Positions 1,664 through 11,828 of a stretch of 12,008 nucleotides of DNA are shown here, piece after piece (within the stretch, counting starts at the first letter, position 1; each line of letters starts with the position of its first letter). The notes below the pieces were generated by a model. The model searched no databases, was not told the origin of the DNA, and was given only the letters and a program-made list of their open reading frames with translations. The translations under genes were made by a program, and so were the position numbers. This stretch comes from Promethearchaeati archaeon. GTDB lineage: Archaea > Asgardarchaeota > Heimdallarchaeia > JABLTI01. The DNA is taken from contig JABLTI010000135.1 in assembly GCA_013166835.1 (NCBI GenBank), positions 1 through 12,008 of the forward strand, given 5' to 3'.

Positions 1664-2473
1664 TTGCACCTCACAATATTATTTGATGTGGCGAAAATCT
1701 TGGCAGCAATTGAACATTGGGTTTGGCTTATTATCTGCCCAATTATTTCTTACTTTATTGGATCAATTCCATTTTCTTTTATTGTTGCTAAATGGAGAAC
1801 TGGTGATGATATACGGGAATTTGGCACAAAGAATGTTGGTGGTTTAAATGTAATGATTAAAACCGGATTCAACTGGGGAATTCTTGCTGGTGGTTTGGAT
1901 TTCTTAAAAGGTTTGTTTTGTGTTATTACTGTTTTATTAATTCCCTTTAATGATACTCCTTTAGGCGGAGCCGGTGAATTTTGGGAAATTTCCATTCATA
2001 ATCTAATTTACATTCTTGTTGCTATGGCTGTTCTCCTAGGACACAATTATCCCATTTATTTGCGATTCCAAGGTGGTCGAGGTATAGCTGCAATTGTTAG
2101 CTTTCTAATTATTGCCAATCCGCTTCTTTTGCTTGTTTTTATTTTCAGTATGATTATTTTTGTTGTAATTACTAGGTATGTTCGCCCCTCACAATTTCTT
2201 GCTCTTTTCATCGGAATCCCTGTTGCCTTTTTCCTAAATTTCTTTCCTCCTTGGATAATATTAGTCGGCATGGATAGTACTTTTGTTCTTGGATTATTTA
2301 CAATAGCAATTGCATTAGCGATTTTACCAAAATATCTCAGATCATTTGTTGATATGTTCAAAGGCAAAGAATATCAGGTTGGCAAATTTTATTTTCTAGA
2401 TTTACATAATATGGTTGCAATGATTTTGGCATACTATCATTCTTTGTTATTTTTGCAAATTCAGAAGCAATAA
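1664..2473 (+). CDS. plsY: PlsY-family (acyl-phosphate:glycerol-3-phosphate acyltransferase-like) membrane protein, divergent
   Basis: SYFIGSIPFS, DIREFGTKNVGGLNV (motif 1), LDFLKG, GHNYPIYLRFQGGRGIA (motif 2) and multiple TM segments. Motif 3 is degenerate. Start is TTG 1664 or GTG 1688, and the 3' end may be extended by a 1-nt deletion. Confidence 0.85.
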   Translation: MHLTILFDVAKILAAIEHWVWLIICPIISYFIGSIPFSFIVAKWRTGDDIREFGTKNVGGLNVMIKTGFNWGILAGGLDFLKGLFCVITVLLIPFNDTPLGGAGEFWEISIHNLIYILVAMAVLLGHNYPIYLRFQGGRGIAAIVSFLIIANPLLLLVFIFSMIIFVVITRYVRPSQFLALFIGIPVAFFLNFFPPWIILVGMDSTFVLGLFTIAIALAILPKYLRSFVDMFKGKEYQVGKFYFLDLHNMVAMILAYYHSLLFLQIQKQ

Positions 2474-3356
2474 GACCGACCAATAATTGTCTATCCTCAT
2501 CTAGAGTTTTCATGTATAGAAATTTTCCTTTGGGGATATTTTTCGTTACTTCCCGGAATGTTCCTTCAGGATGGTATTTGTCTTTTGGTCCATGGCAAAC
2601 ATATACTTCATTTTTAATTTTCTTCAAATCATCAGTTAGATCGAAATTTACATTTTTCAGGGAGAACTTTCGCCATTTCCATGGAACTGCGCTTGCTACA
2701 ATATCCATATTTCTTTCTTTTTGAGCTTCATTCTTCATGTTAGACATAACTATTCTTGCAATAATGAATTTAAGAAATCCAAGAAGAAAAGGAGGTATAA
2801 ATGGCATGATTCCCTTAACGAAAATACGATTTTGTGTCCATTTAGTAAATGGATCAAATAGAATCGATGTGGGAGGAGATAGATGGTTATGTATTAATCC
2901 TTGTAGAATTACTCCTCCACTAAGACAAGCTCCCATTAATATGTAATCTTGATTAGTATAGCCAATAAAATCGATTACTTGAGTAATATCTTTGGCTAAT
3001 TGATTTATTGTCAGATCTGTCTTTCTATATCTTCTAATATTTGCAGATTTTTTGTCTCGAGTTTCAACATAATAATACTCATTTTGTTCATGATGTGCAA
3101 TATGAAAATCACGCCAAGTTAGGGGAGTAGTTCCAAATCCTGGCAAGAAAATTATAGGACGTTTAGAAATCTGTTTTTCAGGTTTATAATGATAGACTTT
3201 AAGTTCACCGTCTTTAACTGGAATATAAAAAACTTCACTGATACCTTCATCATAGAAATTTGGCACTTCATTTCTATATATATCAAGTAATTGATCTAAT
3301 TCGGGATTATTTGCTTTAGTATTTTTTTTGTTTTCATTAGCTTTCAAGATTATCAC
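2358..3356 (-). CDS. alpha/beta-hydrolase fold protein with Cys at the nucleophile elbow
   Basis: RPIIFLPGF oxyanion region, DLTINQLAKDI, ILMGACLSGG elbow, CHGPKDKYHP acid motif. Start probably GTG 3356 or TTG 3347, just after the degV stop, rather than TTG 3389. Confidence 0.8.
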   Translation of the reverse strand: MIILKANENKKNTKANNPELDQLLDIYRNEVPNFYDEGISEVFYIPVKDGELKVYHYKPEKQISKRPIIFLPGFGTTPLTWRDFHIAHHEQNEYYYVETRDKKSANIRRYRKTDLTINQLAKDITQVIDFIGYTNQDYILMGACLSGGVILQGLIHNHLSPPTSILFDPFTKWTQNRIFVKGIMPFIPPFLLGFLKFIIARIVMSNMKNEAQKERNMDIVASAVPWKWRKFSLKNVNFDLTDDLKKIKNEVYVCHGPKDKYHPEGTFREVTKNIPKGKFLYMKTLDEDRQLLVGLIASEFAKITKNDSMPKSLQPYYVNLENKICQPDILCL

Positions 3357-3364
3357 TTTGAAAA

Positions 3365-4255
3365 TTATTCTTTCATTTTCTTGATCCAACGTTTTTTGTA
3401 ATCCCCTATATACATAAAACCAAGTGATTTTTCCCCTACGTGAGTACCAACTACTGGACCTGCTTCTTGAATTCTTATCTCTTTATTTTGAACATTGTGT
3501 GCTTCCATTATTTCGTAAAATTCTTGAGCAACTTCTGGATTTCTGACATGCCAAATAAAGATATTATCAGTAATTGCATTTTTTACTACAAGAGGAGCAA
3601 TGAATTTCATTCGTTTGATAACATCCTTGTTTCCACGAAGTGTTCCACCGGGAACTATTAATCCCTCTTTGAAATTAACAAGTGGTTTGATTTGAAAAGA
3701 CGACACCATAAATTTCTTAGCCCAACCAACGCGTCCGCTTCTATAAACACTATCAACACTATCTAAAACAACAACTAGTCTAGCTTGTGTTTTTAGTTCT
3801 TCCAATTTTTGAAGGATTTCGTCCTTTGAATAATCCTTCTGAATCATTTTTGCTGCTGCCATCACAAGTACTCCAAGTGTAGATGTAGCAACTCTCGAAT
3901 CTACAAGTGAAATATCAGCATTCTCAAATTTGCTTCTTACTTTGACAGCAGCCTGATATAATCCTGAGAAACTATCAGAAAGAAAAATTCCGATAACTGA
4001 ATCAGCTCCATCTAATGCTTCGTTGAAAACCTTCTCAATCTCAGCAAGTGAAGGTATGGCAGAAGTCGGATATTCTTCGCATGTCCTAACTTTTTCATAA
4101 AACTCATCTTTAGTTAGTGTTCCCCAATCACCAAAGGTTTTGATTCTTTCTTCACCAAAAATTACTTGAAAAGGAACAATATGAATATTATATTTCTCTA
4201 CTAAATCTCTAGGAATGTCACAGCTACCATCTGTAACTAATGCAATTTTTGCCAT
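3365..4255 (-). CDS. degV: DegV/FakB family fatty-acid binding protein
   Basis: IALVTDGSCD, LSDSFSGLY, VDSR, SGRVG, IKPL and GPVVGTHVG are DegV hallmarks. 296 aa with a GGAGA RBS upstream. Confidence 0.93.
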   Translation of the reverse strand: MAKIALVTDGSCDIPRDLVEKYNIHIVPFQVIFGEERIKTFGDWGTLTKDEFYEKVRTCEEYPTSAIPSLAEIEKVFNEALDGADSVIGIFLSDSFSGLYQAAVKVRSKFENADISLVDSRVATSTLGVLVMAAAKMIQKDYSKDEILQKLEELKTQARLVVVLDSVDSVYRSGRVGWAKKFMVSSFQIKPLVNFKEGLIVPGGTLRGNKDVIKRMKFIAPLVVKNAITDNIFIWHVRNPEVAQEFYEIMEAHNVQNKEIRIQEAGPVVGTHVGEKSLGFMYIGDYKKRWIKKMKE

Positions 4256-4474
4256 TTGAAATGGTCTCCATAGTTGGAAATATTAAGGAATATTGTATTA
4301 CTATTTAACTTAATAATTATTGAATTTTTTCTTTTCTCAATAGATTTTATGATTATATTTCTTATACTTGTTTTTTACAAAATGAAAGTTTAATCTAATC
4401 TTCCAAACATCTTCTTTTTTTTGCAATAAAAAACACATAAACTTTTTATTAGCTCAAAATAAACACACTCTATT

Positions 4475-5947
4475 ATGGCGAAATTGGAAGTCCCTTTTGG
4501 AAAAAATCTTGCGTTCGGAGTAGGAGAAATTGCTGACCAACTCGCTTATCAAGGTTTTACATTTACGATTTTCACTTTTTATTTTTCAGTTATGAAGCTT
4601 GATGCAAAATACATTACCATTGTTTTCATTCTTTGGTCTATTTACAATGCGTTTAATGATCCTATTATTGGTTCATTCTCTGATAGAACGAGAACCAGAA
4701 AAATTTTTGGTGGGAGAAGACGTCCTTGGATGATTGTTGCTGCACTTCCGCTAGCAATTGTTATGTTCCTTCTTTTTACTCCCCCTGGGGGACAAGTGGC
4801 TGGCGGTTATGCCATTGGAACAATAATCTATATGCTCTTTATTATGTGTCTCTTTGATACTGTCTATACTGCATTTTCTATTAACCGCACTTCTCTTTAT
4901 CCCGAATTATTCCGCACCGATAAGGCTAGGGAAGAAGTTGGTGCTCTTCGCAGAATTTTGATGGTCATTGCTCTGTTATTGGCATTCATCATGCCTACTT
5001 TACTTATATCAGACATGACTTTAGAAGAACCAACATCTTTGTTTGCTGATATTAAATGGCAATATCAACTTACAGGTATAATCTTTGGTGTGATCATTTT
5101 AGTAACAATTTTGATTAATGTTTTGTGGGGTGCTAAGGAAGCACCATTTGAGGAATTAGAAAAGAAGAAGCCATTGAAACTTTGGGAATCTTTGAAGGTT
5201 AGTCTTAAGAATAAGAAATTCGTCATTTTCGCTTTGTGTTCAACTATGAACTGGTATGTCTTCGGTTTAATTCCCACTATTATGCCTATTTATGTGAAAA
5301 GCGTTGTTGACACAACTAACGACTGGTTATATGTTGCACTTGACTCATTAGGTGAATTACGTATTAGTGTACCCTTAGTGTTAGCGTTCGTTATGTCTAT
5401 ATTTGGAGTTCTTTTCTGGTCATTTATTGATAGAAAAATAGGCAGTAAATTGGGTTTCATACTCTCAATGTCTTTGTGGGCAGCTGTTCTTATCCCTTTG
5501 ATTTTCGTCAAATCATACCTTGGAATCCTCATTATCATGACTCTGAATGGGATTGGTCTCGGAGGATCACCCTACTTCATTGATAGACATATTTCAAATA
5601 TTGCAGATGATGATGAACTAAGAACGGGTCAAAGAAGAGAAGGGTCGTATTTTGGTGTTCATGCATTGTTTGTTCGATTATCTACTATTCTATCAATCGG
5701 TTCCATCGCAATAGTTCTTACTACGAATGGTTGGGCTGTGTATGATCCGGCTGTAGTTACGGAACAGATACAATTCGGTCTTCGTTCTCTGATGTCTCTC
5801 TTCCCAGCTGGTGCATTGCTGATTGGTATTGTTATCCTAATCTTTTATCCTCTGGGAAAGAAAGAAGTAATGAAAATGCAAGCTGGATTGAAAGATAGAA
5901 CGGAAGAAACCTCAGAATTTGAAGCTGAAGTTTCTGATGAGAAATAA
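4475..5947 (+). CDS. MFS transporter, GPH (MelB-like glycoside-pentoside-hexuronide:cation symporter) family
   Basis: NAFNDPIIGSFSDRTRT, GRRRPW, DDDELRTGQRREGSYFG and about 12 hydrophobic segments. Confidence 0.93.
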   Translation: MAKLEVPFGKNLAFGVGEIADQLAYQGFTFTIFTFYFSVMKLDAKYITIVFILWSIYNAFNDPIIGSFSDRTRTRKIFGGRRRPWMIVAALPLAIVMFLLFTPPGGQVAGGYAIGTIIYMLFIMCLFDTVYTAFSINRTSLYPELFRTDKAREEVGALRRILMVIALLLAFIMPTLLISDMTLEEPTSLFADIKWQYQLTGIIFGVIILVTILINVLWGAKEAPFEELEKKKPLKLWESLKVSLKNKKFVIFALCSTMNWYVFGLIPTIMPIYVKSVVDTTNDWLYVALDSLGELRISVPLVLAFVMSIFGVLFWSFIDRKIGSKLGFILSMSLWAAVLIPLIFVKSYLGILIIMTLNGIGLGGSPYFIDRHISNIADDDELRTGQRREGSYFGVHALFVRLSTILSIGSIAIVLTTNGWAVYDPAVVTEQIQFGLRSLMSLFPAGALLIGIVILIFYPLGKKEVMKMQAGLKDRTEETSEFEAEVSDEK

Positions 5948-5956
5948 AAAGAAAAG

Positions 5957-6838
5957 CTAAGTTTCTTTAGCTTTCTTCTTCCCCTTTTTTTTTGCTTCCA
6001 CTTCATCAAGTCCATAACCCTTACGCACTCTTTCTCTGAAAAGGGCCAGAAATCGAGTTATTGGACCTCCATCCACAGTTGTATGATCTATATTGAAAGT
6101 TATCCAGAGGTAATCTCGAGGTATTATTTTTTCTGTATCAACTTCACCATTCTCTTTAATCAAGTAACCAGGACGTTTTTCAATTCCTCCAACATTTATT
6201 GAGAGATTCTCAACTGCAATGGGTATAGAGGTTCCTCCACCTCCTGCGTACATACCAACTGATGTGATTCCTATTGTACCAGCAAATTGTCGACGAAGGA
6301 ATGGATTTTTAAAAATACGATTAAAGAGAAATCGTCTAAGAAATCCGGGCATTCTTAGAAGTTTATCAGTAGCTGATGCTCCTTCTTTATCGACCATACT
6401 GTCGTCTTTTATTGTTTTTGTACCCCTTATGACATCTGTTATTTCTTGAATCGTTTTTTCATTTGCTTTACGCATCAAAACTGAGGTGGGCATTTTCTTT
6501 CCTTTAACCTCACGTTCAACTAGGAAAAAAACATCTACATCCTCAAAAATAACCATACGTCTTCGTCGCCATTTTATTGCTTGCATGTAAGGATGCTCTG
6601 CTACAGTTCTAGCAAAAACATATGTTAAATAAGCAGAAAATGAAAGTTTAATATCCTTCTCTTTTAGTTCTTTAATTTTCATAAGAGGATAGGTAACATC
6701 AATATCTCCAATAGCATAAACCTTCAGTGATTTTTTCCCGATAGATATGAAATCAACCACAATATCTCGACCACGAGAGAATGGTACAGTATAATATGAA
6801 CCAAATTTCGATTCTTTTGTTTCTCTTTTTCCGTTCAT
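5957..6838 (-). CDS. stand-alone 2-oxoacid dehydrogenase E2-type acyltransferase catalytic domain (no lipoyl or E1/E3-binding domain)
   Basis: DIDVT, GTIGITSVGM and ITFNIDHTTVDGG (HxxxDG catalytic motif). 293 aa with no lipoyl-Lys domain. Confidence 0.88.
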   Translation of the reverse strand: MNGKRETKESKFGSYYTVPFSRGRDIVVDFISIGKKSLKVYAIGDIDVTYPLMKIKELKEKDIKLSFSAYLTYVFARTVAEHPYMQAIKWRRRRMVIFEDVDVFFLVEREVKGKKMPTSVLMRKANEKTIQEITDVIRGTKTIKDDSMVDKEGASATDKLLRMPGFLRRFLFNRIFKNPFLRRQFAGTIGITSVGMYAGGGGTSIPIAVENLSINVGGIEKRPGYLIKENGEVDTEKIIPRDYLWITFNIDHTTVDGGPITRFLALFRERVRKGYGLDEVEAKKKGKKKAKET

Positions 6839-6898
6839 AATATTTGGATTAACTGAAATGATAACATAAATATTGCGGTAAACAAGTATGTCTTCCTG

Positions 6899-7549
6899 TT
6901 ATATGTCATTGAGATCCAGTACTAGTAGTGCTAAACAATCAACTATCAATACCAATTTCTGAAAAATAATGGACAATAATATTAGTACCGGATTTTTGGT
7001 TATTTCAGATGGAATAAAAAATACAATTAATAAAACAATAACTACAAAAACCAATACAACAATTGATACATCTAGATAATAATCAAATTTTCGTTTCTCA
7101 GGTATTTCTTGACGTTTTCTTACATATCTGAGTAATTGAAGGGTGAAATTTAATATGCCAAATCCTGCGACAAAGAGAGCTGCACCTACTGTATGTAGAA
7201 TCAATAAATTACCTTTGTCTTGGGGGATAGCTACCAAACTAGCTCCAAAAGCAAGTATTAGATTCAATGATCCTTTGAGATACTTGTATCGAAAATCACT
7301 AACAAAATACAGTATAGAATTAACAATAGAAATCAAAGCACATAATCCAAACCCCACACTCATAATAATTGATGAAATTAGATTATCATACAAAAAATCA
7401 ACGCTCAATTGTGCTCCTAATTCACTTAAATAATCTTGGAAAAACCTGTAAGGTTCCGGCAGAAAATAAATCGCAAGACCCACAGTTAAAGCTAAAATTG
7501 GGAAAATTAGCAAATAGAGATATCTAATTGTTTTTTGCATTCTCTTCAA
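6899..7549 (-). CDS. DUF998-like (Frag1/DRAM/Sfk1-related) multi-pass membrane protein
   Basis: About 6 TM segments, YRFFQDYLSELG after TM1 and a His in LHTVGA. TTG start with a GAAGGGG RBS. Confidence 0.6.
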   Translation of the reverse strand: MKRMQKTIRYLYLLIFPILALTVGLAIYFLPEPYRFFQDYLSELGAQLSVDFLYDNLISSIIMSVGFGLCALISIVNSILYFVSDFRYKYLKGSLNLILAFGASLVAIPQDKGNLLILHTVGAALFVAGFGILNFTLQLLRYVRKRQEIPEKRKFDYYLDVSIVVLVFVVIVLLIVFFIPSEITKNPVLILLSIIFQKLVLIVDCLALLVLDLNDI

Positions 7550-7570
7550 AATAAATCCCCTTCATTTAAA

Positions 7571-7589
7571 TTAACTAGCAACTAGTTAA
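7571..7589. promoter_or_regulatory. perfect palindrome TTAACTAG-N3-CTAGTTAA, candidate operator
   Basis: 8-bp perfect arms located 22-40 nt upstream of the 7549 start. Confidence 0.5.
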
Positions 7590-7705
7590 GTTTTTTTCAA
7601 ATTAAGGTAAAATGTATGGCCTTTTTCTGTCAAGTCTAACTAAACTTCTGAAGATTCTACATTTTTTTAGCCTTTAAAATGATTTTTCGCTAACAATTGT
7701 TTGAT

Positions 7706-7754
7706 AAAGAAAAGAAAATGAACCAACCTTTGTTATAATTGCAAAGTTTGGTTC
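7706..7754 (-). terminator. stem-loop plus T-rich tract downstream of the caspase-like gene
   Basis: Minus strand GAACCAAACTTTG...CAAAGGTTGGTTC followed by ATTTTCTTTTCTTT, starting 15 nt after the stop codon. Confidence 0.6.
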
Positions 7755-7769
7755 TATTACATGTTCAGT

Positions 7770-8663
7770 TCAAAGATAGAATGGATCGTTAGGTGATCCA
7801 TCAAATTCCAAAGGCCAGTCACCGGGTCGACGATAAATGTCAATGAATAATGGATAAGCTAGATCAAATGCTTCTTCCATTGAAGCTGAACCACCTAGCT
7901 CGCCGATTAAAGCGTATTCTAAGAACCAATAAGTCCAAGCACCGTTTAAATGTAAAGGATCATCGTAGCCATAACCGTTATCAGAACAAGTTGTAGCCAA
8001 ATAGATTTTTTCTGCATTATCGTTGAACATTACATTCTGAAATCCGCCAGCATAACAGTGATCAATGAATATGAATGTATTTGCGATAGATGGAGACATC
8101 ATTTCTTGGAATTCTAAGTGAGTAATTAGTCCGTTGTAACCGTTTTCTCCTGCAGATGTATCCCACATACATAAATAGTATATGAATTCATCTAAAGTCG
8201 TTGATCTTCCTCTGCCACCATGTCCACTTGTAGTAAAAACGAAGATATCATCTTCATCAACTACTGCTAAAATATTTTCAAGTGCAATTCGTACGTTGTA
8301 TTCTGTTGCACACCCATCCCATTGGGGATAGTCTTCGGGATGACTATCACCTAAGAGTGTGATTTGATATCCTAAAGGACTTAAATAATTAAACCAATCT
8401 GCTGCATCTTCATCAGCATAATTTAAGTCACTAATCACATTATAATCTGAAATCCCAATAAGAAGTGCATATTTGTTGACTATTCCGTCTCCTTTCTTGT
8501 ACTTGTAAGCGAAGCTACTAGCGTCTTCAAAGAAATCTCCATCTGCGATTTCTTCGGTTCGTGTTGAATTTCCTCCAATTGCCATTGCCCCAGCTATACT
8601 GGATACTGTAAAAATCAGTGTTAAGCATGTCATGTATAATGCTTTTCTCTTCAAAGCACCCAC
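7770..8663 (-). CDS. secreted clan CD (caspase/metacaspase C14-like) cysteine peptidase
   Basis: KYALLIGISDY, LNYADEDA, TTSGHGG (His) and FIDHCYAGG (Cys) dyad. N-terminal KRK plus hydrophobic stretch ending AMA resembles a signal peptide. The true start may be TTG 8654 after GAGGTG. Confidence 0.85.
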   Translation of the reverse strand: MGALKRKALYMTCLTLIFTVSSIAGAMAIGGNSTRTEEIADGDFFEDASSFAYKYKKGDGIVNKYALLIGISDYNVISDLNYADEDAADWFNYLSPLGYQITLLGDSHPEDYPQWDGCATEYNVRIALENILAVVDEDDIFVFTTSGHGGRGRSTTLDEFIYYLCMWDTSAGENGYNGLITHLEFQEMMSPSIANTFIFIDHCYAGGFQNVMFNDNAEKIYLATTCSDNGYGYDDPLHLNGAWTYWFLEYALIGELGGSASMEEAFDLAYPLFIDIYRRPGDWPLEFDGSPNDPFYL

Positions 8664-8822
8664 CTCATTTAATTTTAAGGTTGCAAATTACTAATAATAA
8701 CAGTACTCTTTAAACAAAGTCTGAGAATGGTTTCGAATTGGTAGCGTGATAGTATTGAGTTTGTATCATCATGTTCAACTTAAAATAAAGATAGATTAAG
8801 AAATCTTTGAAAAAGGATCAAC

Positions 8823-9194
8823 TTACAGATTAAGCTCAAATTCTATTTCATCGGGTTCTCCATCTTCTCGATATTGTAGCACCTTTCCATTTTCTTTGAA
8901 TCCAAAGCTCACAATTAAATTTCTCATTGCAACATTTTCTACTACTATACTTGTTCTTACAGTTTTTAATCGCCCATCTTTTCGTAAAATATCAAGTACA
9001 AGTTCCATAGCTTTTCTTCCATAACCTCTTCCCTGAGAACGAGCATCAATCATTAATCGCCAAATATCATAATCTTCCAGATCATAAGCGATTAAACCTA
9101 CCGCTTTCTTATCCACGTATACTCCTTTCGCAATTTTCTCTTCTTTAAATTGCATTTGAGCGATTGTGTATAGATTTATGAATTCTACCCTCAC
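8823..9194 (-). CDS. short GNAT acetyltransferase (diamine/spermidine acetyltransferase-like), possibly N-terminally truncated
   Basis: IWRLMIDARSQGRGYGRKAM motif A and ENVAMRNLIVSFGF motif B. Only 123 aa. Confidence 0.7.
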   Translation of the reverse strand: MRVEFINLYTIAQMQFKEEKIAKGVYVDKKAVGLIAYDLEDYDIWRLMIDARSQGRGYGRKAMELVLDILRKDGRLKTVRTSIVVENVAMRNLIVSFGFKENGKVLQYREDGEPDEIEFELNL

Positions 9195-9346
9195 ATTTTG
9201 TATGGAAGTTTTCAGTTATTAGCTTATCTTCTTCGTTTTGATCTTAGAATTATAACCCAAACTCTTGGAAAATCCAATGTAATTCTGGATAAAATTAATT
9301 AAGACTGTTTTTATTTATTGTTTATAAAATCGGGGTAGGTAGTAGT

Positions 9347-9400
9347 AAAAAATCGTTTTAAAGTATAAATTCACAGTAATCTGTTCTAAAACGATTTTTT
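9347..9400. promoter_or_regulatory. 14-bp perfect inverted repeat enclosing a TATA-like box
   Basis: AAAAAATCGTTTTA (9347-9360) and TAAAACGATTTTTT (9387-9400), with a 26-nt spacer containing TATAAAT (9364-9370). Confidence 0.6.
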
Positions 9401-9456
9401 GAGAATTATTGGACTTCTGATTTTATGTTGTAATCACTAAGAGAGCATGTGATATA

Positions 9457-10614
9457 ATGACTGATGATGATAGCCAGTATCATCTATTACGACATGAAAT
9501 TGATACTCGTACAGCTAATGCTTTTCCAGCATCAGAAACAGGATTAGAAATTCGTATTTTAAAACAAATTTTTACACCTTTGGAAGCTCAAATTGCCATA
9601 CATCTAAGTGCCTTTCCTGAGAATATAAACCGGATTCATAAGCGTGTGACTAAGAACGGAATTGATATTTCAATCCATGAATTAGAAGAATTACTAGATG
9701 GATTAGTTAGAAAGGGAGGAATTATTTATGAAAAACTCCTCTTCAAAAAACCAAAGCAGAAAATGTATGGTCTACTTCAATTTGTAATAGGGATTTATGA
9801 AATGCAAGTTGACAAGCTAACTAAAGAACTAGCAGCAGATACTGAACAGTATCTTCACGATACATTTGTTCATACATTTCAAAGCTCAAAAGATCACAAG
9901 CAAATGCGCACAATCCCAGTCAACAAGAGTATTGCGGTGGATCGTTATGTTGCCAACTATGACAATATCAAAGAAATTATTGAGAAAAAAACAGGTCCTA
10001 TTGTAATTCTCAATTGTGTTTGTAAGGAATCAAAAGATCTTTTGGAAGACCCATGCAAATTGGGAGATACTCGTAATTGTTGCATAACTTTTGACTATGC
10101 AGCTGTAGGTTCACTTGATTTATTTCCTTCAGCTAGAGAAATTTCTAAAACAGAATTATTGGAGCTTCTGGATGAATATCAAGATCTTGGTTTTGTTCTT
10201 CAACCTGAAAATTGTATTTCGCCTAAATTTCTGTGTGTTTGTTGTGGTTGTTGCTGTGGGGTGTTAAGTACTTATAAAACAACAGCTCATCCTGCTGATT
10301 CCTGGGTCTCTAATTATTATTCTCAAGTAGATCCTAAGATGTGCACTGGATGCGAAATATGTGTGAAGCGATGTCAAATGGAAGCTATATCACTTGTAAA
10401 TAAGAAAGCTACCGTAGACTTGACTCGTTGTTTCGGTTGCGGAAACTGTGTTTTGAAATGCACACCAAATGCGATAACACTTCACAAGAAAGATAAGATT
10501 ACAAAACCCAGCAGATTTCATAAGGGACTTTATTTAGATTTCTTTAGAAAAAAAAGAGGTCTTTGGGGTGTTCTTAAAATGCTTGGTTTATATTTACTTG
10601 GAAAAAAGGTCTAG
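9457..10614 (+). CDS. Cys-rich iron-sulfur protein with C-terminal 2x[4Fe-4S] dicluster domain
   Basis: CTGCEICVKRC and CFGCGNCVLKC ferredoxin motifs, central NCVC, NCC and CVCCGCCCG, and a helical, possibly wHTH-like N-terminus. Confidence 0.88.
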   Translation: MTDDDSQYHLLRHEIDTRTANAFPASETGLEIRILKQIFTPLEAQIAIHLSAFPENINRIHKRVTKNGIDISIHELEELLDGLVRKGGIIYEKLLFKKPKQKMYGLLQFVIGIYEMQVDKLTKELAADTEQYLHDTFVHTFQSSKDHKQMRTIPVNKSIAVDRYVANYDNIKEIIEKKTGPIVILNCVCKESKDLLEDPCKLGDTRNCCITFDYAAVGSLDLFPSAREISKTELLELLDEYQDLGFVLQPENCISPKFLCVCCGCCCGVLSTYKTTAHPADSWVSNYYSQVDPKMCTGCEICVKRCQMEAISLVNKKATVDLTRCFGCGNCVLKCTPNAITLHKKDKITKPSRFHKGLYLDFFRKKRGLWGVLKMLGLYLLGKKV

Positions 10615-10727
10615 ATAAATAATATTCTTTTTCTATTGACTGCTAATTTACAAAGTAAAGGCATAAGAATAAATTTCATAGAACCTTTTTGTTAATTACA
10701 ATCAAATCAATAGAGATAAGGAATGAA

Positions 10728-11129
10728 ATGACTTCTGCAAAAGACAAAACTGAGGAAGAATGGAAGAAAGAATTATCCAAATTAGAATATGATGTTTTGA
10801 GACTGAAGGAAACTGAAAGACCCTTTACTGGTGAATTTTGGGATCACAAAGAAAAAGGAATCTACAAATGCGCTGGTTGTGGTGCAGAACTCTTTTCCTC
10901 AGAAACAAAATTTGTATCGGGGTGTGGATGGCCTAGTTATTATGATGCAATAGATAAGAGTAAGATAGAAGAGAAAAAGGACCGAACTCATGGTATGATC
11001 CGAATTGAGGTTTTATGTAAGAATTGCGGAGGGCATTTAGGGCACGTCTTCAATGATGGACCAAGTGATAAAACAGGACTACGATATTGCATTAATTCTG
11101 CATCATTGACTTTTGAAAAGGCAGATTAA
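10728..11129 (+). CDS. msrB: peptide-methionine (R)-S-oxide reductase, zinc-binding Cys form
   Basis: [38 protein letters not shown] and [12 protein letters not shown] at 10728 preferred over TTG at 10689. Confidence 0.97.
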
Positions 11130-11177
11130 TTGCGATACATAAAACATAGATGAAAAATTCAAAGTTTTGTTGTAGCT

Positions 11178-11828
11178 TCAACTAATTGCATTATTGATTG
11201 GAAAATAATATCTTCTTCGACCTTTTCTTTGAATAGTGATAAAATCTTCTTGTTCAAGAATTACTAGATGATATGTTACTGTGCTTTGACTTCTTTGCAC
11301 TTTATTCCTAATTCTCAATTGCGTTATTCCTGGTTCTTCACGAATTAAAGACAGTATTTGATTTCTAGTTTCAGATTTTAATATAATTACGTGAGTTAGT
11401 TCACTTGACTCATCCGAAAAACTTCCGTCGTTTAGATAAAACATAAGGTATTGTTTGGTTCTTTTTCTTTTGATCATTTCAAACCTTTCAAGCCAAGAAA
11501 GATGCCACTGAGTTTGTCCTCTGCTTAATTCAAGATTTTTTACAATTTCGCTGAAGTGAACTCCTGGTTTTTGTTTTATTAAATGATAAATTCTAGCTCG
11601 ATTATAGTTAGCTAAAATATTGTCATATGTTACTGTGGAGCTCAATGATCCCACAAAGCTCACAAGCACTAGCAATGCTACTCCAGCTAATACACTATAG
11701 AGTATTTTCTTGTTAAATGGAGTAAAAATATCTAGGTATTTGTAAATCAACCAGCTAATGCCTATTGTTATGCTAGTTGTTATTAGAAAAAGAAATACCC
11801 AAATTGCTAGCTTTATCTTTTTGTGCAA
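11178..11828 (-). CDS. membrane-anchored transcriptional regulator with tandem winged-helix (ArsR-like) domains
   Basis: Two N-terminal TM helices, then NRARIYHLIKQKPGVHFSEI...QWHL and TRNQILSLIREEPGITQ...STVTYHL...I...RKGR. TTG start with a GAGG RBS. Confidence 0.85.
   Translation of the reverse strand: MHKKIKLAIWVFLFLITTSITIGISWLIYKYLDIFTPFNKKILYSVLAGVALLVLVSFVGSLSSTVTYDNILANYNRARIYHLIKQKPGVHFSEIVKNLELSRGQTQWHLSWLERFEMIKRKRTKQYLMFYLNDGSFSDESSELTHVIILKSETRNQILSLIREEPGITQLRIRNKVQRSQSTVTYHLVILEQEDFITIQRKGRRRYYFPINNAIS

Follow-up and report, generated by a model that had tools for sequence, protein, structure and literature searches.

A six-gene locus in a Heimdall-type archaeon

The window analyzed here is the entire contig JABLTI010000135.1 (C74; 12,008 bp) of a Promethearchaeati archaeon, and the subject of this study is a run of six adjacent genes within it whose products are candidates for handling fatty-acyl groups. 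Three of these genes, referred to below as module A, encode a divergent PlsY-family membrane protein (1664..2473, plus strand; PF02660 E 5.5e-32), an Asgard-specific alpha/beta-fold protein with a Cys nucleophile, here called the hydrolase (2358..3389, minus strand; weak Abhydrolase_6 match, E 2.3e-3), and a putative fatty-acid binder of the DegV/FakB family (3365..4255, minus strand; PF02645 E 6.5e-68). The other three, module B, encode a GPH/MFS_2 transporter (4475..5947, plus strand; PF13347 E 6.1e-63), a stand-alone E2-like acyltransferase of the CAT fold (5957..6838, minus strand; PF00198 E 2.5e-11) and a polytopic membrane protein resembling DUF998 and Frag1 (6899..7549, minus strand; Frag1 26.4 bits and DUF998 23.4 bits, both below cut-off). 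An original prediction made from the DNA alone had named six adjacent genes of these families; all six reading frames lie where it placed them, and Pfam and NCBIfam matches agree with its assignments.

The host is a Heimdall-type Asgard archaeon, as that prediction had supposed in speaking of a probable archaeon. The source genome (G000; 3.56 Mb in 260 contigs, 84.75% complete, 6.79% contaminated) encodes ribosomal protein L21e, which among the control-set genomes is confined to the four archaeal ones, and the GC content of contig C74 (0.335) matches that of the genome (0.337). Five loci related to the PlsY-like protein are labeled Candidatus Heimdallarchaeota archaeon (three), Promethearchaeati archaeon (one) and Candidatus Bathyarchaeia archaeon (one). 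Below, C-numbers are contigs of G000 unless another genome is named, G081 to G091 are relatives in the same genus, and f1 to f7 are the seven families of the Heimdall-type class, with G000 and its genus in f1. Because nine further genus genomes have orthologous contigs and two further studies yielded contigs, from public sediment runs, that cover positions 1776-8900, 2433-4623 and 4594-11668 of the window, contig C74 is not contaminant DNA and not a chimera. Contigs from two other studies also join modules A and B.

One detail of the assembly affects module A. The 3' ends of the PlsY-like and hydrolase reading frames overlap by 116 nt in the window, and close relatives of both proteins terminate earlier. 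At 2386..2391 (a gap without strand), contigs of runs X4 and X5 carry 64 extra bases, and their sequence past the loose end at 2386 codes for the C-terminal tail of P0048, a 95%-identical relative of the PlsY-like protein (248 aa) whose tail differs from that in the window. Given the missing bases and the earlier-ending relatives, the run-on tails and the overlap are local, and the last ~27 residues of the PlsY-like protein, the last ~9 of the hydrolase and the 116-nt overlap are probably local artefacts or a strain-specific deletion.

Two separately conserved modules

The six genes are two neighboring, separately conserved modules, not the one module that had been proposed. In module A, DegV and the hydrolase share a strand, with a 25-nt overlap between the stop of the first and the start of the second; the two genes are predicted to be co-transcribed as an operon, DegV then hydrolase, on which the PlsY-like gene converges. 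Synteny was followed over ±10 kb, contig permitting, around the PlsY-like ortholog in nine genus genomes. The hydrolase gene lies next to it at four of the nine orthologous loci (G082, G083, G087 and G090), and DegV is also present at three of those four. In G084, G085 and G091 the ortholog is instead accompanied by a PlsY-family paralog in tandem, and none of the other module genes was found around the PlsY-like loci of G086 and G088. In module B, two minus-strand genes, the DUF998-like one upstream and the E2-like one 60 nt further down, are met by a convergent transporter gene. Orthologs of the transporter at least 80% identical occur in G083, G085 and G090; with G000 this makes four genus genomes, in each of which both the E2-like and the DUF998-like gene are found no more than 1.5 kb away. 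Transporter homologues at 16 further loci, 15 in one f3 genus and one in f6, have neither an E2-like nor a DUF998-like neighbor.

A single six-gene module was ruled out, as the two modules part in G087, G090 and G085. For instance, module A of G087 runs directly into GNAT and ferredoxin genes, with the transporter, E2-like, DUF998-like and caspase genes missing there, and G090 carries the module B block on its contig C4 and module A on its contig C11. The synteny of plsY, hydrolase and degV with the transporter and E2-like genes recurs module by module in the genus, and the two modules adjoin only in G000 and its nearest relative.

The FakA–DegV–PlsY operon and its paralogs

An open reading frame search of G000 found 10 PlsY-family genes, 17 DegV genes (18 by Pfam), nine hydrolase-like, six E2-like and three DUF998-like genes, one FakA and one neutral/alkaline ceramidase. 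Four clusters were seen, on C74 (the window), C203, C21 and C106. The C106 cluster (C106:10040-12789) is a FakA–DegV–canonical PlsY operon, and the same gene order is found in G081, G084, G088, G089 and G090, making six of six genus genomes examined. Its kinase could supply the acyl-phosphate on which the original prediction depended. The C106 FakA (329 aa) is built of a Dak2 domain and a FakA-like middle domain. It covers positions 1-299 of the YloV model (530 positions; 339.9 bits) and resembles Streptococcus FakA (7W7H_A, E 2.7e-63), with the catalytic middle-domain Cys and His-x-His conserved; it has no C-terminal FakB-docking domain. FakA takes other forms elsewhere in the class: full-length proteins of 585-602 aa in f7, and in f3 a split protein whose stand-alone middle domain (89-140 aa, mostly ~100-124) is encoded away from the Dak2 locus.

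The PlsY of this operon (242 aa) carries the motifs GSGNTGFSNAYR, GHNYP, FKGGKGMAT and FRHRDNIKRLL, retains the motifs that bind glycerol-3-phosphate (G3P) and scores 153.6 bits against the TIGR00023 equivalog (cut-off 137.2), which makes it canonical. Of the remaining copies, five others score 81-108 bits by hmmscan against the same model and those on C28, C130 and C258 score 94-113 bits in a six-frame search, all below cut-off. The neighbors of the copies on C184, C59 and C80 (two copies) include a nitroreductase, a PAPS reductase, an APH-type kinase, an MBL-fold protein and unknowns, none of them informative; the copies on C28, C130 and C258 lay outside this survey. The APH-type phosphotransferase gene (PF01636 E 8.7e-9) precedes a divergent PlsY-family paralog by 58 nt, both being encoded on one strand (C80:52487-54103).

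On C203 (1874-7111; L070), genes for a ceramidase (659 aa, E 8e-134), a DegV protein, a hydrolase and a PlsY-like protein all lie on one strand, and the hydrolase paralog there is of the Ser type. Ceramidase frees fatty acid from ceramide in eukaryotes and bacteria. The C21 cluster joins DegV and hydrolase genes to two DUF998-like genes, and all three DUF998-like copies of G000 lie within 5 kb of a DegV gene. The co-localization of PlsY-family and hydrolase genes with DegV exceeds chance. A DegV gene is found at most 3 kb from three of the 10 PlsY-family genes, where 0.32 such cases would be expected, and 0.27% of 20,000 random placements reach that count; for the hydrolase genes the count is three of nine (0.25% of 20,000). 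These counts include the window, itself chosen for the feature, and without it two of nine PlsY-family genes are near DegV. Thus, the recurrence of DegV, hydrolase and PlsY-family genes in each other's company, in keeping with the original prediction, is borne out by the paralogous clusters, the genus relatives and the above-chance adjacency.

Proteins of module A

The PlsY-like protein of the window belongs to the PlsY family (PF02660, 111.6 bits; gathering cut-off 24.1) and fails the TIGR00023 equivalog (86 bits; cut-off 137.2). It matches the Aquifex aeolicus PlsY structure 5XJ5 at E 4.4e-12 alone and at 8e-30 as a profile of 19 Heimdall-type sequences, which was aligned to 5XJ5 over positions 5-195. 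Residue roles are taken from the structural study of Li et al. (2017; PMC5700162), who call the G3P pocket "invariable" in bacterial PlsY. In the window protein, the acyl-phosphate site, or phosphate hole, retains N37, N42, H92 and the GGxG loop; across the 19 sequences, H92 and the glycines of GGxG show no variation and N37 hardly any. The contacts for G3P differ: the phosphate clamp carries the substitutions S35T, R45I, K104R and N180S, and the 2-OH contacts carry S142Q and H177Y, so that S35, R45, K104, N180, S142 and H177 are replaced by T, I, R, S, Q and Y, respectively, with none of six identical. The acyl-carbonyl contact is also changed (T41L), and changing T41 to Ala is described as cutting the activity of Aquifex PlsY severely (PMC5700162). 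Since none of the residues of a pocket called invariable is kept, the window protein is not classed as a G3P acyltransferase; the original prediction had cast it in that role, which is unlikely given these residues, and the canonical PlsY of the genome is the one on C106. The window protein may work similarly on an acceptor other than G3P.

None of its homologues at 50% identity or more is bacterial by label; organism names, where given, are Heimdallarchaeota or Asgard, and several of these proteins are auto-annotated as glycerol-3-phosphate acyltransferase. Bacterial PlsYs reach at most 38% identity. In a 43-row tree, the window protein and the C184 type form a supported clade (96/95), and the C106 copy falls among more distant homologues (P0084-P0105, two of them labeled bacterial). 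The deep branches are weak (85/75) and several rows have long branches, and no reliable origin or duplication order is recoverable from the 43 rows. Seven PlsY loci were fetched from the class's other families, and none has a DegV or hydrolase gene within ±10 kb.

The hydrolase was modeled with AlphaFold2 (pLDDT 89.7), and a Foldseek search of the model returned esterase, PhaZ, phospholipase A and ABHD6 folds (E ~1e-12, TM 0.5-0.6), all generic esterase-type matches and no specific family; the alpha/beta-hydrolase fold is thereby confirmed. Its nucleophile elbow, which follows strand 5, reads G-A-C-L-S-G, and in 37 aligned homologues the C155 column holds Cys in 23, Ser in 14 and nothing else, consistent with the Cys hydrolase named in the original prediction. 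Residues D270, H273, E109 and K113 are invariant in the 37, with H273 three residues past D270. An acyl-enzyme formed on Cys would be suited to passing on the acyl group no less than to hydrolysis. Among 47 homologues none is bacterial by label, and names that give an organism are Asgard, Heimdallarchaeota, Promethearchaeota and, once, Thorarchaeota. By family, the hydrolase occurs in 11/11 f1, 30/31 f3, 1/3 f4 and 2/12 f5 genomes, and it was not found in the f6 (0/22) and f7 (0/2) genomes searched. Tandem arrays of three or four copies are present at G084:C89:129963-133949 and on G085:C178, G086:C15 and G088:C13. At loci L104, L105 and L106 in three f3 genomes, a 213-aa stand-alone Dak2 gene and then an NTPase_1 gene lie directly upstream of a hydrolase homologue.

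The DegV protein passes PF02645 (229.5 bits; cut-off 27) and TIGR00762 (244.1 bits; cut-off 99.7) and fails the FakB1 equivalog (174.1 bits; cut-off 350). Against B. subtilis DegV (3FYS) it gives E 2.5e-37 and against S. aureus FakB1 ~1e-35, and the stretches PT(S/T), LS..(I/F)SG, SGR and GPVVG(T/A)H align among the three proteins. The window protein carries PTS, LSxxxSG, SGR and GPVVGTH and thus has the Thr/Ser, Ser, Arg and His sought at the carboxylate site. We take the Thr/Ser, Ser and His of these stretches to be the carboxylate-site residues. The role of Arg173 in FakB is described by Subramanian et al. (2022; PMC9136124).

Proteins of module B and neighboring genes

The transporter exceeds the PF13347 cut-off (213 bits; cut-off 27) and falls below that of TIGR00792 (152.5 bits; cut-off 231.35). 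As had been suggested, it stands near MFSD2A: its best matches among solved structures are the MFSD2A lysophosphatidylcholine symporters (E 1.3e-20 to 6e-13), against 5e-9 for MelB. The E2-like protein (293 aa; PF00198 43.9 bits, cut-off 23) carries the motif DHTTVDG, and (D/N)HxxxDG is retained in all six E2-like paralogs of G000. No Pfam family besides PF00198 was found in it; since lipoyl and subunit-binding domains were among those not found, it is not an E2 subunit. Its similarity to solved structures is weak (E 5.5e-5), and its atlas neighbors are stand-alone "E2 family" proteins of 277-291 aa, mostly bacterial. Two of the six paralogs lie ~1-1.4 kb from a UbiA-like gene encoding 394-420 aa (C201:1774-4769 and C87:1-2399; PF01040 E ~1e-12), a hint that the E2-like acyltransferase family may be tied to prenyl-lipid metabolism. 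The atlas neighbors of the DUF998-like protein are DUF998-type clusters, mostly from Promethearchaeota.

Beyond module B, the window holds a caspase-like Peptidase_C14 gene (7770-8663, minus strand; E 3.2e-9) and then a small GNAT gene (8823-9194, minus strand). The former is kept in the nearest relative and missing at the corresponding site of G087. Near the start of the latter, at 9177/9178, contigs of three public runs have 90 additional bases, and the GNAT gene may be truncated in this assembly.

Lipid genes across the class

The full bacterial phosphatidate pathway is not present among the genes detected. PlsX was not found in G000 (the one genome searched), nor PlsC (PF01553) in any of five genus genomes, nor GpsA (PF01210), for which the genus genomes gave weak Rossmann-fold matches alone. 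The original prediction had proposed a search for these genes; a complete pathway is not shown, in genomes that are 85-92% complete. A weak PF01210 match beside CarS, the best in G000, proved to be a PanE/ApbA ketopantoate reductase. Among the PF13685 matches examined, G1PDH was not found in the genus: the two G000 candidates checked are ordinary Fe-alcohol dehydrogenases (a third, on C34, lay outside the check). CDP-archaeol synthase (CarS) is present in five of five genus genomes (E ~1e-37 to 1e-43), and UbiA-family genes were found in G000.

GGGPS was sought in 83 genomes of the class in two ways, with the PF01884 profile and with an f7 GGGPS protein as query. The profile matched 0/11 f1 genomes (G000 also none), 0/1 f2, 4/31 f3, 1/3 f4, 2/12 f5, 19/22 f6 and 2/2 f7. 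Of the seven matches in f3-f5, those in G020 (1.9e-55) and G056 (3.4e-9) are the strongest and the other five lie at E 1.5e-5 to 9.4e-4. With the f7 query, 19 of the 22 f6 genomes matched at E <= 1e-59 and one more at 1e-3, and both f7 genomes matched; in f1-f5, apart from G020 (6.2e-10), every match had E 4.5e-4 to 1e-2 and covered only 35-110 residues (mostly 55-85) at the C-terminus. The G020 gene (G020:C45:1515-2198; L058), the sole strong match in f1-f5, is 26% identical to the GGGPS type of the class and may be a transfer or a binning contaminant.

Canonical PlsY, above the TIGR00023 cut-off, shows the opposite distribution: 8/12 f1 genomes (one further genome being flagged by tandem sum only), 1/1 f2, 26/31 f3, 3/3 f4, 12/12 f5, 0/22 f6 and 0/2 f7. 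Thus, strong GGGPS matches are found in 21 of the 24 f6/f7 genomes and one of the 59 f1-f5 genomes, and canonical PlsY in none of the 24, so that the two are almost perfectly complementary across the 83 genomes, which are related and so not independent, and mostly incomplete metagenome-assembled genomes (MAGs). DegV copy numbers split along the same family line (f1 5-23, f3 3-18, f4 2, f5 1-5, f6 0-2 and f7 1). In f3, all genomes except the smallest (1.2 Mb) have at least nine copies, and each of two single-contig genomes has nine. DegV was not found in the four archaeal control genomes.

A proposed expanded fatty-acyl repertoire and its alternatives

We regard it as modestly probable that modules A and B are accessory copies that form an expanded fatty-acyl-lipid repertoire around the FakA–DegV–PlsY core on C106. 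A role in fatty-acyl handling linked to the Fak system is well grounded in gene linkage, and this part of the import, deacylation and re-acylation scheme of the original prediction stands; the scheme as a whole does not, since the window genes are accessory paralogs, their PlsY-like protein is non-canonical and no full pathway was found. The evidence for the accessory reading consists of the recurrence of module A, the C203 and C21 clusters, the above-chance co-localization, the Fak operon in all six genomes, the f3 loci that join Dak2 and NTPase genes to a hydrolase, the intact module B in all four genomes, the MFSD2A best match and the contigs that bridge the two modules.

The gene content, residues, paralogy, synteny and distributions are observations, and the biochemical steps that follow are all inferred. 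On this accessory-copy reading, environmental acyl lipids would be de-acylated by the Cys/Ser hydrolases and, in the C203 cluster, by the ceramidase. The free fatty acid would be carried by a DegV protein, as the conserved ligand-site motifs suggest, and phosphorylated by the sole FakA. That kinase step is expected because the Cys-His-His triad is retained and because the S. aureus N-plus-middle construct FakA_NL is reported to be active, with a Km for FakB ten-fold higher (Subramanian et al., 2022; PMC9136124). The acyl-phosphate could then be used by PlsY-family transferases: the canonical C106 PlsY would acylate glycerol-phosphate, and the window protein, with its phosphate hole kept and its acceptor pocket rebuilt, probably transfers acyl groups to a different acceptor. 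A lysolipid may be taken up and then re-acylated from acyl-CoA through module B, by analogy with LplT/Aas of E. coli, which imports and re-acylates lysophospholipids.

Several observations weigh against the accessory-copy reading. Modules A and B adjoin only in G000 and its nearest relative, and five of the nine PlsY-like loci have no hydrolase or DegV gene nearby, three of these on contigs of 4-8 kb. The loss of all six G3P contacts and of T41 may mean that the window protein is not an acyltransferase at all. In the hydrolase, the expected position of the catalytic His after strand 8 is occupied by Arg in 35 of 37 homologues, so the search for that His failed and the protein may be a binding protein or an enzyme with an unusual triad. 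In a Pfam scan of their neighbors, the other five E2-like copies of G000 have no lipid context apart from the UbiA-like genes near two of them, which does not bear out the lipid setting originally proposed for this gene. With no PlsC, PlsX or GpsA found, the fate of any lyso-lipid product is unexplained. The genomes compared are MAGs of 64-92% completeness, and the relatives are not independent samples. Finally, Coleman et al. (2019; PMC6431249) hold archaeal PlsY and PlsC unlikely to act in membrane synthesis.

The alternative that survives best, unlikely as we judge it to be, is that the Fak, DegV, PlsY-family and hydrolase set serves purposes other than membrane synthesis, such as detoxifying or buffering fatty acids, catabolism, or acylating proteins, glycans or small molecules. 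It draws on the missing PlsC, PlsX and GpsA, on the CarS and UbiA-family genes, by which isoprenoid lipids may still form the membrane, and on the number of DegV copies (17-18), more than one pathway needs. Apart from the C106 copy, every PlsY-family paralog (nine of 10) is below cut-off, and altered motifs at the acceptor site are seen in the six that were aligned. Coleman et al. (2019; PMC6431249) share this view. Conversely, a canonical PlsY with G3P motifs in a FakA–DegV operon in six of six genomes is the arrangement expected for phospholipid synthesis, and GGGPS is undetected in the same lineages.

The boldest reading is a membrane role at its fullest. GGGPS forms the first ether bond of archaeal lipids; five families out of seven, with 59 genomes that include two single-contig ones, would have lost it and replaced this step with the acyl-phosphate route. 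With canonical FakA/FakB-PlsY and a radiated set of DegV, PlsY-like and hydrolase genes, they would make ester-linked or mixed ester/ether glycerolipids from scavenged fatty acids. The distributions of PlsY and GGGPS are consistent with it, and G1PDH was likewise not found in the genus among the matches examined; we consider it doubtful.

It is improbable that the locus reflects chance or recent shuffling of unrelated genes from big paralogous families, with no common function. The gene orientations are mixed, the modules adjoin in G000 and its nearest relative alone (the G087 site lacks module B), and families of many copies raise the chance of adjacency. However, random placement matched the observed adjacencies in only 0.25-1.2% of 20,000 trials, the same combinations recur at the paralogous loci on C203, C21 and C106 and in other genomes, and the DegV and hydrolase genes overlap by 25 nt on one strand. 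Least credible of all, and in our view very improbable, is that the radiated PlsY family replaces the GGGPS step with an isoprenoid phosphate or diphosphate donor, the window copy being one such enzyme: the complementarity of canonical PlsY and GGGPS, the persistence of CarS and UbiA-family genes, and a lipid-phosphate pocket kept beside a remodeled acceptor pocket would fit, but acyl and prenyl transfer differ chemically, we know of no PlsY-family prenyltransferase, the genes linked to the PlsY family, DegV and FakA, are ones that act on fatty acids (both of them lie at the C106 copy), and no known isoprenoid-pathway family was seen among the partly surveyed neighbors at C184, C59, C80 and C203.

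Comparison with known systems and significance

A close relative of the proposed system is the FakA/FakB-PlsY pathway by which Firmicutes (S. aureus, Streptococcus, Enterococcus and B. subtilis) incorporate exogenous fatty acids. Common to both are the ligand-site motifs of DegV/FakB, a FakA with a Dak2 domain and a Cys-His-His middle domain, and a canonical PlsY above the equivalog cut-off, which in G000 shares the FakA–DegV operon. Unlike the Firmicutes pathway, G000 has a FakA (329 aa) without the C-terminal docking domain, no PlsX or PlsC was found in the searches described above, and 17-18 DegV and 10 PlsY-family copies are present in an archaeal host; in addition, the PlsY copy of the window has its acceptor pocket replaced. 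The comparison with Aquifex PlsY 5XJ5 is similar: the family is the same, the alignment over 5-195 is at the level of topology and the phosphate hole is kept, whereas the G3P pocket is changed. Module B resembles both LplT/Aas of E. coli and MFSD2A in pairing or matching a major-facilitator transporter with the acyltransferase beside it, but its acyltransferase is of the E2/CAT fold and not of the Aas type, and a DUF998-like protein is its third member. With the E2 of 2-oxoacid dehydrogenase complexes, the window E2-like protein has PF00198 and DHxxxDG in common; it differs in its lack of lipoyl and peripheral subunit-binding domains and in its six stand-alone copies in G000.

That Asgard archaea have PlsY is already published. 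Villanueva 2017 is said to have noted PlsY/PlsC homologues in them. Coleman et al. (2019; PMC6431249) describe PlsC and PlsY in a Heimdall-type genome and PlsY in Loki- and Thor-type genomes, and their account is sceptical of the role of these genes. Manoharan et al. (2019; PMC6737245) mention PlsY/PlsC homologues in Asgard genomes, and Wu et al. (2022; PMC8813620) describe a mosaic pattern with two Heimdallarchaeum genomes without PlsC. These reports, like ours, place PlsY-family genes of Loki-, Thor- and Heimdall-type genomes in the context of the lipid divide; their passages on lipid genes, supplements aside, do not mention FakA/DegV linkage, the PlsY radiation, the hydrolase family or GGGPS complementarity. 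A literature search found no report of archaeal FakA/DegV-PlsY linkage, of the family expansions or of the absence of GGGPS in Heimdall-type families (supplementary tables may hold such data), and with the same reservation the Fak operon, the paralog expansions and the PlsY/GGGPS complementarity were not found in print. Two recent papers are of related interest. Rieche et al. (2026; PMC13400652), a further report on Asgard PlsY to which the same remarks apply, show that PlsY accepts glycerol-1-phosphate and G3P alike, and a 2026 Nature paper links eukaryotic sphingolipid metabolism to Asgard archaea (PMC12872458), a link which the C203 ceramidase fits.

If the host of the eukaryotic cell was archaeal, the origin of the bacterial-type ester lipids of eukaryotes is an open problem, and published surveys have noted scattered Asgard PlsY/PlsC genes and mostly discounted them. 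The present results change this picture. In one Heimdall-type genus, a canonical PlsY lies in a conserved operon with a kinase and a binding protein; around the operon, DegV, PlsY-like, hydrolase and ceramidase genes form a radiation that is both large and linked; and the lineages with canonical PlsY are those in which GGGPS is not detectable. A vague genomic hint thus becomes a set of concrete, testable candidates. Heimdall-type cultures now exist. If the genes serve only fatty-acid buffering or catabolism, they would still show clearly that an archaeon has adopted a bacterial pathway and diversified it. If ester or mixed lipids are made, these lineages would span the lipid divide as living intermediates, and the modules of the window would be part of the machinery.

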